From Octopus vulgaris (taxonomy: Eukaryota), in assembly GCA_951406725.2 (NCBI GenBank), contig OX597832.1:41416001-41480000 (forward strand): a stretch of 64,000 bases of DNA, given 5' to 3'. The notes beneath the pieces are model-generated. The model searched no databases and was not told where the DNA came from. It saw nothing but the letters and a program-made list of their open reading frames with translations. Shown here in pieces: positions 1-22,947 of the stretch; position 1 is the first letter of the stretch; each line of letters opens with the position of its first letter. The position numbers and the translations under genes are program-made.

Positions 1-55
1 GAAAGAACAAGAAGAAGAACAAGAACAACAACAAAAAAGGCTGTAATCTACTCAC

Positions 56-202
56 CAACGAGACAAAAAGATGGAAGAGTACAAAATAGGAAGCAACTAA
101 AATAAGTATGATCACATGGAAGGATTCTACTTTGTCCATGAGGTCATCTACAACTTCAATCCAGCCTTCTTGAGTGAGGATTTGAAACATGGTCACTAGG
201 GC
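56..202 (-). CDS. NALCN: NALCN DII pore-loop/S6 exon, glutamate-filter version (exon-15 equivalent); absent from the ORF track
   Basis: tgccag|[49 protein letters not shown]|gtgagt. 147 nt, phase 0/0, in frame with the previous exon. [10 protein letters not shown] is the NALCN DII filter motif, with Glu codon at 167-169. Confidence 0.93.
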
Positions 203-1714
203 CTGGCAGTGGGAGCGAAATGAAATCAAGTCAGAGAGAAAAAAACAAAACCAAGCCGAAAAAAAATAAAAATAATAATAATAATAACAAAAAAACAGAA
301 ATAAATAAAAATAAAAAAACAAATCAATAAATAAAAAGGAAATAAACGAAAAAATAAAAATAAAATAAGAAATAAAAATGAAATAAAATGAAAAACTTAG
401 AAGAAAGAAAAATACTACAAAACTTAAAAGAAATAATAATCATATATATTTATATATATAATAAAAAAACATAAAAGATTAAATAAATCAAACAACTGCA
501 AGCAAGGAGCAAAATAAAATAAAATAAAATAAAATAAAATGAAATAAAATAAGATATAAAATAGATTATGATGGGATGAAAGAAGTGTACTAGTAAAAGT
601 ACCAAAGAGAAGACTATATGGAGGGTGAGTTTGGTGTTGTCTGAATGGAATGGTCTTTAGGTCAATGAGAAAGAATTAGTAAGATGAAGAGAGGGATGTA
701 AGATGAAGAGCCTAGTCTAAGACCACATTAGTGGTGATGGTCAACAACAGGGAGATGAGTTCGTTAGAAGACACTTGCCCAAGTTACTATGCAACAGGAT
801 TGGTCCCAGAACTGTGTGTTTGCCAACAGAACTGCTAAACCAAATGCCTGTGCCTATATATGTTGCTGACATCATGAGAATTTAGAAAGTTCAAGAGAAT
901 GTGAAATAATTCATTTATTTTATATATTTTTTTTTTTTTGGAAATGATGAGACTTGAAGCGGATAAAGCTATAATAATAGTGAGTAAATATTGGGTTAAA
1001 AAGCACTTTGGATAGAAAAAGTCAAAGGCTGCCTGTGAAACTTGAACCCACATCTCCTATAAACATGACAGATGTTCTACCATTGGACAGATGCAATCCC
1101 ATCCTTTTTTAGGAACTTTGAGAGAATGTAAAACAATGCATGTTTACAGATGTGGGTTTGAGTCCTATGGTTAGCCTTCAACTTTTTCGATCCAAAGGGT
1201 TTTTAACCAATATTTACACACTATTCTTTATAGCATTATCTGCTTCAAGTTTCACCATTCTAGAAAATACAAAAGGAATTTTATATATGCGTGTGTGTGT
1301 GTGTGTGTGAGTTCACATTTGTAATTTCACAATCCTGTATAAACCCCCAGGGCAAATTAAGGGGAAGCAAATAAAAGATATAGAAACATTCCCTTTAGAT
1401 CTGTCAATAACTGGAAAACTGTGGCTTAGTTCCTTCTAAATCTCAAAAGTACAAAATATTAATTTCACAGCTGAAATTCAGTGTAGGCCAAAGAGCAAGA
1501 ACCTGTATGTCTTGAAATTACAAACTACATCATATAAACAGCCCACCTGTTTTGAGGTCGAAGGCAAGTTTGATGGAATTCAGCCACAGATAAACATTCA
1601 TCCATTCTTACTTAAAGTAGATGGATAACCAAAGAATACTATCTACCTGTCTTTCAGTTAATCAATGAATTAATCTATATATTCATCGAAATATATTTGA
1701 TCATTATCTATCAT

Positions 1715-2080
1715 CTTGTGACGCACCTGGACACATAGGGATGTTACCTTGGGTCACTGGGTATTCTGGGTCTTTCAACAATCGGACAGCTTCATGGGAT
1801 GACCCAGCTAGGGTTGATCAGGTTTCGGCTTCTGTCCAGTTAGCCCTACCCCACCAGAGCTCACACCTCTTGATCCACAATCACCTTGAAGCAATCTTGG
1901 CAACCACTGTGAGACAAATTGATGGCCTTCTGCCTTCTGGCTCCTATGATACCCAGCATTGTCAGAGGCTCTGCAGAGGGACTGGCCAGAGTATCCCACT
2001 TCTATGGAATCACACCTTGCATGCCAGTCTTTGTTCCAACATAAATAAACCTGTTCAGCATATTTTAACCTCTTCCTCTC
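1715..2080 (-). mobile_element. HERO-like non-LTR retrotransposon 3' end (restriction-like endonuclease C-terminus plus 3'UTR), degenerate
   Basis: ERKRLKYAE...WHARCDSIEVG..GQSLCRA, then frameshifted ...ASR*LWIKR, resembles the RKxxKY...W...P(I/V)EVG...ASRWLW motif of HERO-clade REL domains. Confidence 0.7.
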
Positions 2081-3291
2081 ACTTATATTGTATATAATGA
2101 TAGAAATACAACACCTTAATATATAAAAAGATGGGCAATTATGATCTAAAGAGGCAGAACTAAAATGTAGAAAAAAATAAAAGAATGTATATGAACTACA
2201 ACAAAACAAAAAATAACAAAATAGCAAGCATATATAATAGGGTTTAGGGGTGAAGTGAAGGAACATTCAACCAAATTGTATAAACTGTAAAAATCTTAGG
2301 ATCCTAAGTAATAGATTTACATTTCCTATAAACCAATCCATAGATGTTTCATGTTTGTAAAAAACATAATATAAGCATAGCTACTTGCAAGTTAGCATGA
2401 CTTGGCAGCTTGTTGCACACCGTCACTAATTGTATTCATTTACAGCAAAGTAGACTGGAGAAATATAAAATGAAAGTGTTTGCTCAAGGGACACTAGTTC
2501 AAGAATTGAACCCATGACATTATGATTGGGAGTTCAACACTAACCAGTAGGCCACATACCTTCTTAATATAATAATCAAAACATAAAGGTTTTAATTTTT
2601 GGCACAAGGCTATCAATTATTGGGGAGAAGGCAATTGATTACGTCTGGACGTTATCAAAGAAGCTTGAGAGGCGGTTGGATGGAACCTACACTCGCCTCC
2701 TTATGAGAGCTCAAAATCTCTCGTGGAAGCGTCATACAACCAAAGTACAAATATATGGGAAATTACCACCTGTATCATCTCTTGTGAAAGGTAGAAGAGT
2801 CCAGTTTGCTGGACATTATTGTAGAGCTGAAAACGAGGTAATCTCTACTCTTCTCCTTGTGAGCAAAATACCCTAACCACTAAACCATGCACCACTAGTA
2901 GATGCACGAAGCCTGAAATTTGAAGGAGTGGGGCAAGTCAATAACATCAACCCTAGTACTTCACTGATATCATATTTTATAGCAACCAAAAGGATAAAAA
3001 GCAAAGTTGATCACAGCAGGATTTAAACTCAGAATGTAAAGAGCCATAACTACATACCACAAGGCATTTTGTCTAATGCTCTAATAATTCTCTCTGTGAT
3101 AATAGCAACTATGACAATTTCCAAAATAAACATAAAACTAGGCATTTGGGATAAAGAATTTGACTGAAATTTTATCTACCTGGATAGATATTTTATCAAC
3201 CTTGGCAGGATTTGAACCCTGAGTATAAAAAAAAAAGATAGCTAAATATCACAAGGCATTTGGTTCAATATTTAATCACTTCTGTTCATCC

Positions 3292-3322
<31 letters not shown>

Positions 3323-3544
3323 GATTTCTGACTTAGGCACAAAGCCAGCAATTTTGAGGGGAGGAAGTAAGTTGATACTATTGACCCTCCAATATTCAAT
3401 TGGTACTTTATTGTATCGATCATGGAGAGGTGAAAAGTGAAGTTGATCTCAGCAGGATTTAAACTCACTCTTTAAAGAGCCAGAACAAATACCGAAAAGC
3501 ATTTTTTTTTCAAATGTTCTAATGTTCTTGACAACCCACAGATC

Positions 3545-3586
<42 letters not shown>

Positions 3587-6216
3587 TGATGATGATGATG
3601 ATGATGATTACCCAAGTTGTTAAAAATTTTGTTTGAATAACCATGTCTACCAAACAAAATTCAGATAAAAATCAAAGATTACTTAAAGATTTTACAGTTT
3701 TCTTATATATTTGATTAAATGTTCCATCAGAGTAAAATGCACCAGAAATACTCAGATGAAAGAAAAAAAACCTTGGGTTTCAGGTTTTTGTATTTTTCTG
3801 GAATAATTTAAAAATAAAAAGTTCAGTTACTACATCACTCTCTGAGATTTTGTGGTGTATTTTGGTAAGTGCTAATTCTAGCAAAAGACTCACTAATAAC
3901 AATAAGCAGTTAACAACGAAGAAAATAAAGAATTCTCGGAAATTCCTCAGGCACAAGAACAAGTTGCTCAAAGCCAAAAAGATTTAGTCAATCTACATTC
4001 AGCTCACACTAATCTAGACATACAACCCATAAGAAATACAAACAACAGCAACAAAATAAAAGGGTAGATTAAGGATATTACATAATCTTTGAATCTTAAA
4101 GAGCAATTTCTGAAAGAAATCCTTTAAAGATGATAAATGAAACAAAAAAAAAAAACATAAAAAAAAAGTATTTTCAATTCAAGCAAACATTAAAAAAAAC
4201 AAAATAAAATTTAAGCATATAAAATAAATATTACAAGTATTTTTATCAGGAAAAAAAAAATCCAAGGTTTGATCATTTTTATGTTTTTTCACCTTTGCTT
4301 TGTTTTGGAAGTTTAATTTTCTAAAAATAGAAAAAAAATTCTAAAAAAAAAACAAGCAATTATATAACCACAAGTTCACATATATACTAATCCATTTTTA
4401 AAATGCTCTGGCTACTATTTTCAGCAAGCCAAGTGAATGTGTAGAAGTTGCCCTCATTATCTCAAAAAAAGCCACATGTTTTGATAGGATGTCAAATCAA
4501 AATTGTGTGATATCCATACTTTTATCACATGTATCAGTGACATAAGTGAAGTGAAATGTCTACAACCAGGATCGGGTGTGTAGCCTATACATTTATATTA
4601 CCTGTCATACAAGGCAAATATTGATGTACAACAGAAAAAAAGTCTTTAGAAGGAAAGACAATCTTGCACCAGTTAAACTGAAATAGAATAATTTTAATAT
4701 ATATAGATATAGCGCCAATGATATAGTGCTGGTGCCATAATAAAATGTACTCAGTACATTTTGTAAAATGGTTGGCATTAGGAAAGGCATCCAACCATAG
4801 AAAGTATGCCAGTAATGAAACATGACCAAAATGTAATCTCTCAACTATGTATGAGGGCAGTAATTCCAAATAAGAACTGAATTGTACCATGACAGGCTGT
4901 CCAAACTATGCCAGTATGGAAAGTGGATATCAAATAAATATGAGGATGATGATGATATGCAACATATACTGAACATGAATTACACATATGTATACAATTA
5001 AAATTGTGTTAATGGATCAGTTAAGGATTTGAAATCATAAATTAAGGGGTGACAAGAACATCAGAAATAATGTGGTTCTATTAATGGTGTAATTAAGCTA
5101 AGCTATGGAAACATCTTGCTTGTGCAAGTGCAGTTAGTCAAAAACTCTGCATACTGGACACCAGCAGGTTTCAGGGGTTGTCAGGAGAGAATGTGCACCA
5201 TTTCAGGGCCTTCTTCCCGATGGCTTTACAGCACACTGATATGAGGCCCTACCTACTGGACTGGCAGATGTATTTGATCTTAGGTCCATTTCAGGATCAT
5301 GAAAGCAAATCTCATCTTTCTTATACATTCTTTCTCAAATGGTGTGGGGAGTGATGGAAGAGCAGAAAATATGTGAAACTTCACAACAATACATTATGAA
5401 TTGAGTATGAAGTTCATGCACAGATATAACGAAATATATATATATATATGCATACATAGTGATATAATGATATTCTCTTCTATCTTCTAGATAGAAAAGA
5501 ATATCATTATCATTATAAACGACTTTCAATTTACAACTGATATCTGAAGACTGAAAATAGAAGATATTAAATTTACATTATAAAATTAAAACTGTATCAA
5601 CATACAAAAAGCAAAAACAAAAAAATTCAAATATTTATAACAGCAACTTGGTAAGTGTGTACTATTTGCAAAAATACAACACATGTAATACAAAATATAT
5701 GCGTGTGTGCATGTGTGTGTGTGTTTAATCACAGTGTAGGTTGCAACTTTTGACAAAATTCACATTAAACTCCCTCTACTACGTGACCTGGTAGGGCTCT
5801 ATGTGACTAGCACAGGGCTATTAAATAATATGAAGAACACATATAGTATGAGAAAAAAACCTGAAGTTCATATTTCTTTTTATTTCGTAATTTTGTATCT
5901 GTTAAAATAGTTTCATCAGAAGAGATGTTTGATATGACCAAATGTACTTTATAAATTGCATTTACAATTTGTCACCATTCTTTCATTTTGATAATTGGTT
6001 ACAGATACATTCATAAGATATAAAATAAAAGAAATACGAAACTCATGCTTCATTTTTTTTTATCCCATGAAAATATCATTATCACTATAAACAAGTTCCA
6101 ATTTACATTTGATATCTGAAGACTGAAAATGGAAGGTATTATATTTACATTATAAAATTAAAACTGTACCAACATACAAAAAAAAATTCAAATATTTATA
6201 ACAGCAAGTTGGTGTG

Positions 6217-6258
<42 letters not shown>

Positions 6259-6383
6259 ACATCACAATCAAGGAACGGCCATAATAGGCCATTCACCCAC
6301 TAGAAATAACAGCCAAAGCTTCAACCGCAAAATAACATTAATTCCGCAAATTCAACAAAATTTTTTTTGCCACCCTATATTGA

Positions 6384-6444
<61 letters not shown>

Positions 6445-7488
6445 GAGAGAGAGAGAGAGAGAGGATTATATATATATCAACATTACAATATATAACACAT
6501 GCACACAAATATATTTATAATATAATAATGGATTATTTCATGTAATATTTAAGAGAATTTTGAATAAGAACTGCTAGTCGACTCATCAGGAAAAGTATCA
6601 AAATGAAAATACTATTATTTGTTGGTAAAAACATATTGCAATGGAAGTCTTAGCAGAAACTGAAAAAAAAGTGAAGTAAATGAGTTTGGAAATTGACAAG
6701 ATTTTGAAAAGAAAATTAACTGAAAAGTACAGATTCCTGAAAACACAATAAAGGATATTGAGATATTATATCAAACAATGAGTTACTTTATGAAAATTAA
6801 CAATAAAAATAACATTGGTTCATATTATAAACTGACTTGATACAACAAATATAAATTTAATTTAAAAGTGACAATGAATATTTTAAGTAAATATCAAATT
6901 CTAGAGATTATATTAATAGTAGTAATTTCTTTCTTAGGTGTGGAGTCCCAGGCAAGCAGGGTTAAGAGTGTTTTGCCTTGAGACAAAGCACAGCGCTTGC
7001 ATTGGGGTACAAACAATACTGGACTAGGGCTCAGTCTCTTATTCCCTCCACCACTGTCTGCTATGAACTTACAAGTTCATGAGATTGAACCATATCAGGA
7101 TTTTCAAGACATTTAAGCTGAGAGTACAACAGTTCCTCTTGAACAGGATGCCAGTCCATTGCAGTGTTAACTCCAGGAGTCAGTGGTACTCTTTTCCAGT
7201 TGAGTGTGCTGGAGTGGTATGAAATGAAGTGTCTTGCACAAGGACACAACCTGCCCAGTCTGAGAACTGAACCCACAAGGGATCCTGAGTCCAACATCCC
7301 AAACCACGGGGCCAGGTATCTTCACTCGGCCACTCCACTCATAAATATTATTAATAAAAATACTAACAAATAGATTACTTTTAAAATTAGAAATTGATAA
7401 TTAAGCTTATATAAAGTTATCTTTAATTGAAATAATTTGAATTTTAAATGAATTAATGATTTCCTACTTAAAATAGAATAAAAAATTA

Positions 7489-7731
<243 letters not shown>

Positions 7732-16666: not shown

Positions 16667-16921
<255 letters not shown>

Positions 16922-22656: not shown

Positions 22657-22947
22657 CTTGACAATGCCTCGTATATGCATTTCAGCTATCATCTCTGTTG
22701 TAAACAGAAATGTAATAAGTAAATCTGTGATGAAGGTGACATATTTTAATTTTGGTTGATATTCAAATGTCTTAGGGGTGTTCATACTAACAGATATCAT
22801 ACTAATTAGGGCACAAACGCGAAACATTCGTCGAACCCAAGCTTTTTTCACCCAGTCGATATCTGTGGTATCATTGACATTTTCGTCTGGTCCGTAATCA
22901 GATAGTGCCATGTTTTCTCGGAAACTTGTCTTTCTGTTTACAAGCAT
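22657..22947 (-). CDS. NALCN: NALCN first coding exon (N-terminus, domain I S1-S2)
   Basis: MLVNRKTSFRENMALSDYGPDENVNDTTDIDWV...ISVSMNTPKTFEYQPKLKYVTF...EMIAEMHIRGIVK closely parallels the vertebrate NALCN N-terminus (DFGPDESLSD...MNTPMTFEHYP...MHIRGIVK). 291 nt, donor AAG|GTAAGA. The exon likely extends through 5'UTR to a ttccttttcag acceptor at 23157. Confidence 0.96.

Follow-up and report, generated by a model that had tools for sequence, protein, structure and literature searches.

NALCN sets resting excitability. The closest described system to the locus analysed here is the exon pair 15a/15b of Senatore et al. 2013 (PMC3557258), which, according to the available text of that paper, is present in Lymnaea stagnalis, other molluscs, annelids, flatworms, echinoderms and hemichordates, and duplicates the DII pore exon so that the selectivity filter can switch between EEEE and EKEE. 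The preliminary description of the octopus sequence took this molluscan switch as established, and its account matches the published one. Both Lymnaea exons were cloned and measured by qPCR; both isoforms are abundant, with twice as much of the Lys form in brain and an excess of 40-70% of the Glu form in heart and buccal muscle. In HEK cells, the current from either snail isoform could not be told from background (PMC3557258). Cephalopods are absent from the main text of that paper and from the 31 entries of its Appendix S1, as far as the available portions of both extend, and they are not tied to NALCN splicing in the available main text of PMC4436565, PMC6259924, PMC10120453 and 10.1101/2025.04.04.647097. 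A paper on O. vulgaris nociception lists a NALCN transcript, and its available NALCN passages do not discuss the filter (PMC12919962). No description of a cephalopod 15a/15b pair was found in the literature, in a search whose coverage left subscription journals mostly outside.

The stretch of DNA analysed here (the window) comprises 64,000 nucleotides of the Octopus vulgaris genome (G000:C19:41416001-41480000), and the NALCN gene was mapped by tblastn over the window and the 150 kb to its left. A stored protein, P0141 (source names: NALCN-like, Octopus vulgaris and O. sinensis), maps exactly to this locus along a path of 39 coding exons and 38 introns, all of them GT-AG, with 0 mismatches in 1733 aa. 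Coding exons 1-12a lie inside the window and the coding span of the whole gene is ~95 kb (Table 1). The identity of the gene is supported by four Ion_trans repeats in P0141 (4 PF00520 stretches, E 3e-153) and by searches of the PDB with four separate exons, the top matches of which were NALCN. The filters read SQEGW, TQEGW or TQKGW, SLEGW and TGEDW, and because those of DI, DIII and DIV are Glu and single-copy, the gene can encode either EEEE or EKEE. The DIII residue had been singled out in the preliminary description as the check that would separate this arrangement from an ordinary EEKE channel; it is Glu, not Lys, and no second DIII exon was found.

Table 1. Features of the octopus NALCN locus; positions are those of the window unless preceded by G000:C19, and all features lie on the minus strand.
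Feature	Position	Strand	Details
First coding exon	22657..22947	-	ATG at 22947
DI pore exon	16739..16881	-	filter SQEGW (Glu), single copy
Upstream constitutive exon	7534..7665	-	DII S5 and turret, 132 nt; donor CAT/GTAAGC at 7534
Exon 15a, 3' splice region	203..395	-	CAG acceptor; branch-point-like CTGAC at 234-230
Exon 15a, splice sites	206-203 (acceptor); 202-56 (exon); from 55 (donor)	-	acceptor ccag; donor GTGAGT
Exon 15a (published numbering; 12th coding exon here), NALCN DII pore, Glu form	56..202	-	147 nt, phase 0/0
Exon 15a donor and start of following intron	1..55	-	intron of 8,535 nt, opening with GTGAGT; its first 55 nt lie here and the rest continues leftward out of the window
Exon 15b, DII pore, Lys form	G000:C19:41407386-41407520	-	TQKGW; 135 nt, phase 0/0; CAG acceptor, GTGAGT donor
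Downstream constitutive exon	G000:C19:41401731-41401805	-	SLFVAVILDN, 75 nt
DIII pore exon	G000:C19:41372939-41373059	-	SLEGW, single
DIV pore exon	G000:C19:41353305-41353398	-	TGEDW, single
Last coding exon and stop	G000:C19 ~41343531-41343694	-	

Exon 15a encodes the end of P1, the filter, P2 and the start of S6. The exon limits and phases proposed beforehand stand, since the spliced 39-exon frame runs through an AG/GT-bounded exon at exactly these positions, and its translation is identical to the peptide quoted then. The best structural matches of this peptide in the PDB are NALCN chains (E 1.3e-9, residues 544-588), a score at which the resemblance is not due to chance. In that match the filter Glu of 15a aligns with human E554, and the acids at filter +4 and +7 align with D558 and D561. 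The region upstream of the exon is also distinctive: the AG-free zone at its acceptor measures 191 nt, the second longest among the 39 acceptors of the gene, and 62 of the last 100 nt are U, the highest count among the same acceptors. Such a long, U-rich, AG-free acceptor may be a weak hint at splicing regulation.

The exon had been proposed as the Glu variant of a mutually exclusive pair whose Lys partner, a second phase-0/0 pore exon with TQKGW, should lie to the left of the window and before the exon encoding SLFVAVILDN. TQEGW is indeed read in the window, and the partner, exon 15b, is present outside it, 8,535 nt downstream of 15a and ahead of the SLFVAVILDN exon. Likewise, the interval 203-7533 holds no TQKGW partner according to the tblastn map, the genome searches and a profile scan that omitted a short stretch of intron. 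The introns from the upstream exon to 15a, from 15a to 15b and from 15b to the downstream exon measure 7,331, 8,535 and 5,580 nt, respectively, and the donor at 7534 is common to both pore exons. Searched in six frames with the 15a peptide, the genome gave three matches among four candidates scored, namely 15a itself, 15b on the same strand (E 1.8e-4, with 56% of residues identical) and one of low score on another contig (E 3.4), and the reverse search from 15b (six candidates scored) recovered the same pair together with two matches with E above 3. No second NALCN gene was seen, all remaining genome matches among the four and six candidates scored having E above 3.

At the nucleotide level, 92/135 positions are identical between the two exons, which present a common donor context (CGTTG/GTGAGTA). 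When the 3253 open frames of the gene region were scanned with a profile built from 76 distinct exon-15 peptides, two strong matches emerged (iE 1e-25 and 1e-21), below which only the DI, DIV and DIII pores appeared; the scan, which omitted a short stretch of one intron, yielded no third copy of the pore exon. One-by-one searches with all 39 exons detected no second copies of the others, so that only the DII pore exon is duplicated. The pair is hence a tandem duplicate with matching phases (0/0), exactly two copies and canonical sites at both, with the Glu exon upstream and the Lys exon downstream, as in PMC3557258. Splicing 15b in place of 15a leaves an open full-length frame of 1729 aa, against 1733 aa for the Glu path. 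This Lys path shows 0 mismatches to O. sinensis model X2 (P0142) over its 1398 aa and 23/1729 differences to the O. bimaculoides model P0008.

Comparison with vertebrate NALCN, computed against the alligator, pangolin and penguin proteins, agrees with the earlier statement that 15a is more diverged than its flanking exons: 23/49 residues are identical (47%), versus 27/44 (61%) in the exon before and 22/25 (88%) in the exon after, and 15b presents 31/45 (69%) against the same three proteins. Other exons of the gene are more diverged still, loop exons 8, 15, 16, 17 and 23 showing 31-42% identity to penguin. On the peptide comparisons, its divergence from vertebrates is not special to octopus either. 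In all eight taxa for which both exons were available (octopus, cuttlefish-like, Tegillarca, Elysia, Biomphalaria, Plakobranchus, Lineus and Rotaria), 15a is the more diverged copy, and the Lys exon is the nearer one to the six single-exon outgroups used in 8/8 taxa (Neogobius and Nephila rows not included). Mean pairwise identity across these taxa is 0.49 for the Glu-type exons versus 0.82 for the Lys exons, which score higher in 28/28 non-independent pairs. Within the cephalopods, 15a matches Argonauta at 45/49 and a cuttlefish-like protein at 40/49 residues, and 15b matches the cuttlefish-like proteins at 43/45. The leech and the trematodes have lost 15a.

The acidic P2 helix remarked on in the preliminary description is likewise present. 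The 16 residues from the filter include six acidic and one basic in 15a, one acidic and three basic in 15b, and three acidic and no basic in alligator, and the octopus P2 is one of the two most acidic among the 14 E-type exons compared. Exon 15a retains the equivalents of E554, D558 and D561 and gains further acids, whereas 15b loses two of the three. A tree of 34 exon peptides over 47 columns, in which few forks are supported, groups the octopus Glu exon with those of Argonauta and cuttlefish (93/88) and places 14 Lys exons on one side of a weak branch (77/73) that is present in 75% of bootstrap trees. Thirteen of the 14 Lys exons carry His at filter +7.

Two variants were observed among the relatives. 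In the cuttlefish-like 15a (P0005-P0007, P0127 and P0129), Ile takes the place of Thr at filter -2 (ILIQEGW), a position described in the available text of PMC7672056 as a highly conserved Thr/Ser/Cys and occupied in other E-type exons by Cys, Ser or Met; since the Ile is also found in genome-derived records, it does not result from RNA editing. Comparison of the partial Rotaria proteins P0222 and P0251 with P0217 reveals a Lys-type exon and a second, divergent one whose filter residue is Asp (NDGW), which, judged from these sequences, suggests that rotifers, a group absent from the 2013 species list, have an EDEE-like/EKEE pair.

Evidence on the use of both exons in mRNA comes from relatives and from gene models. 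The computed O. sinensis models X1 (Glu) and X2 (Lys) differ by the pore exon, the O. bimaculoides model P0008 contains the Lys exon and two Argonauta models contain the Glu exon. A cluster that includes Sepia pharaonis NALCN comprises 13 members from Logan assemblies, six of them full length, with longest contigs of 6.4-6.6 kb, which would derive from spliced RNA if the gene in these cuttlefish-like animals is as long as that of octopus. Four of the six full-length proteins carry the Glu exon only (19 contigs) and two the Lys exon only (7 contigs), with none holding both or neither; assembled contigs, from which rare forms are dropped, speak to the presence of the forms and not to their proportion. 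Three shorter proteins (P0132, P0135 and P0136; two Glu, one Lys) break off shortly past the exon, running into intron or out-of-frame sequence, and the remaining 4/13 members do not span it. In sequencing runs searched with a constitutive exon, no RNA data set was listed as containing it. When short octopus proteins were sought among RNA contigs, the only cephalopod-named entry in the best 120 of 415 matches was the O. bimaculoides model P0003. That model is one of seven genome-based predictions that join both exons, wholly or partly (P0003, P0128 in part, P0011, P0012, P0013, P0015 and P0045), from O. bimaculoides (P0003), Sepia (P0128, partly), Tegillarca, Elysia, Lineus, Biomphalaria and Plakobranchus. 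Such tandem models are possible because both exons keep the frame, and they are probably gene-prediction artefacts. By analogy with these systems, 15a and 15b would be used in a mutually exclusive manner in Octopus vulgaris, and a tissue bias like that of Lymnaea, with the Lys form in brain and glands and the Glu form in heart and muscle, might be expected.

Two further observations concern the transcripts. In the cuttlefish-like proteins P0131 and P0133, three extra residues are present near residue 870, where coding exons 18 and 19 meet; they occur in the Glu as well as the Lys form and probably reflect an alternative acceptor; no matching AG was found 9 nt upstream in the octopus exon 18/19 intron. 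The Lys filter codon of 15b is AAG, from which A-to-I editing could yield Glu, Arg or Gly codons. The Lys is kept in 3/3 Logan Lys-form proteins, and majority editing is therefore excluded, in the cuttlefish-like cluster only.

Two simple means of enforcing a one-of-two choice were considered and rejected. Decay of frameshifted messages does not explain it, both exon lengths (147 and 135 nt) being multiples of three, and crowding of the splice sites is incompatible with the 8,535-nt intron that separates the exons. Because neither frame nor crowding can force exclusion, a regulated splice choice is presumed, in which splicing factors or RNA pairing would select 15a or 15b. A scan of the three introns for docking-site/selector pairing (inverted and direct matches, in one genome and with no shuffle control, omitting a short stretch of the first intron) returned simple repeats and repeat-like elements, none of them tied to both exons. 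Among these introns, the one between 15a and 15b contains an inverted repeat-like pair flanking an AT microsatellite (~G000:C19:41414083-41414475 and 41411773-41412423; L005), with ~93% identity over 215 and 189 nt, which would form a long double-stranded RNA and is a possible editing substrate. Separately, an imperfect, MITE-like palindrome of ~350 nt (72% identity) lies at positions 927-1274 of the window, 700 nt upstream of the 15a acceptor.

Taken together, we assign a probability of roughly 0.85 to the reading that 15a is the Glu member of a tandem DII pair, mutually exclusive splicing of which produces either an EEEE channel of 1733 aa, predicted to bind Ca2+ tightly, or an EKEE channel of 1729 aa, predicted to carry a Na+ leak. 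The alternative of an EEKE channel like that of vertebrates and insects, with 15a as a plain constitutive exon, which the preliminary description had itself named as its refuting case, is ruled out by the Lys partner exon and the single Glu filter of DIII, and we regard its chances as negligible. It is improbable, if less extremely so, that the pair is genomic but that one exon is a minor form or decaying relic in octopus, or that both behave as independent cassettes and frequently occur in the same message. Double inclusion would stay in frame, models with tandem inclusion do exist in databases and 15a has been lost in some lineages, all of which this reading would accommodate, but both exons retain open frames and consensus splice sites, their conservation in the cuttlefish-like proteins is high, and each of the six full-length Logan proteins holds just one of them. 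Double inclusion would, moreover, give a single domain two P-loops and a doubled start of S6.

The rival with the best prospects, only a little short of an even chance provided that the splicing is real, accepts the same pair and the same splicing and differs on what the Glu form does: it would be a monovalent pore more strongly blocked by Ca2+, or a near-silent ion sensor, and splicing would regulate the gain of the Na+ leak and not which ion permeates. According to the available text of PMC7182417, human NALCN with its partners is permeable to monovalent ions alone and subject to block by divalent ions, a block that acts through E280, E554, D558 and D1390; E554A reduces it drastically and D558A moderately, D561A does not, and K1115A keeps the wild-type block. 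In one structure the DIV Glu points away from the pore (PMC7712781, available text), for which reason EEEE here is probably not a Cav-type ring. The acids retained and gained by 15a, and lost in part by 15b, fit this gain-control reading, as do the loose constraint on 15a across the eight taxa and its loss in some lineages, and the idea of a sensor was raised in the available text of PMC3557258. Against it, a filter Lys is held to favour Na+ over Ca2+ in Nav channels (PMC3557258) and in NALCN (PMC10120453), and a 2025 preprint, in its available text, describes relatives with Glu-rich filters as Ca2+-permeable while treating the EEEE form of NALCN as uncharacterised (10.1101/2025.04.04.647097). 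We put Ca2+ permeation by the Glu form, as predicted from sequence, at about even odds. The term "calcium-type" applied to 15a in the preliminary description is accordingly a label taken from its filter motif, and the human mutants suggest, by analogy, that the switch may mainly set calcium block.

Under the preferred reading of a mutually exclusive pair, the exchange of Glu for Lys would remove the DII carboxylate equivalent to human E554, which is needed for divalent block in human NALCN, and would also turn the outer P2 from predominantly acidic to predominantly basic. With the E554 carboxylate absent, the Lys form would be a less blocked Na+ leak and would pass a larger steady current; in the Glu form, Ca2+ would be bound at the filter, and the channel would carry either Ca2+ or little current. 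As a tentative and rather doubtful extension, the splice choice could swap the charge of the whole DII outer pore and serve as a dial for Ca2+ block of the resting Na+ leak. The Lys form would then be the conserved, weakly blocked neuronal leak, and the Glu form, though bearing the older filter residue, the rapidly changing copy, adjusted in each lineage (strongly acidic in octopods, with a pre-filter Ile in cuttlefish) and either gated by Ca2+ or conducting it.

Cephalopods keep a two-filter option that vertebrates and insects are without, so that splicing by itself could alter the leak current of octopus neurons or muscle. On the question of what an EEEE NALCN conducts, the octopus locus offers no better test than the snail pair already cloned, apart from its large natural charge contrast and the identifiable genes for UNC79 and UNC80. 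A UNC80_N match (E 3.5e-60) was found in a 754-aa open frame on C2, and seven UNC-79 matches on C14. A further UNC80_N match (E 9.4e-4) lies in an open frame of 37 aa, next to a GT repeat, on the same contig as NALCN, 1.2 Mb from the gene (G000:C19:40120509-40120598; L026:4509-4598), and looks like a stray gene fragment. Two overlapping minus-strand frames in the UNC80 region (L025:3143-4323, G000:C2) resemble, by eye, a LINE-type reverse transcriptase from a broken element. The locus also bears on annotation, since automatic gene models frequently fuse the two exons or retain a single one.

The octopus pair resembles 15a/15b of Senatore et al. in domain, in extent (pore helices to the start of S6), in order, in the Glu residues of DI, DIII and DIV and in deriving from a single gene. 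It differs in belonging to a cephalopod, the expression of the published pair having been measured in Lymnaea, and in its exon lengths (49 aa for 15a and 45 aa for 15b). The NALCN exons 31a/31b of myriapods and chelicerates (EEEE/EEKE), as reported in the available text of PMC3557258, similarly switch the filter through tandem pore exons in the order Glu then Lys, but the duplicated exon is that of DIII, which is single and Glu in octopus. Vertebrate NALCN (PDB 7cu3, 7cm3, 6xiw and 7sx3) shares the same exon block (residues 543-588) with E554 as the filter Glu, whereas its filter is fixed as EEKE, with one DII exon and the Lys in DIII, and its DII exon is nearer to the Lys exon of octopus than to the Glu exon. 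In invertebrate Cav3, alternative DII exons 12a/12b also shift the preference between Na+ and Ca2+, as established by recording, but they belong to a different channel family and act via the extracellular turret and not a filter residue (PMC4436565 and PMC10120453, available text). With respect to the available text of PMC3557258, the octopus pair is a new cephalopod instance of the mechanism published in 2013, both isoforms of which are already contained in the O. sinensis database models.
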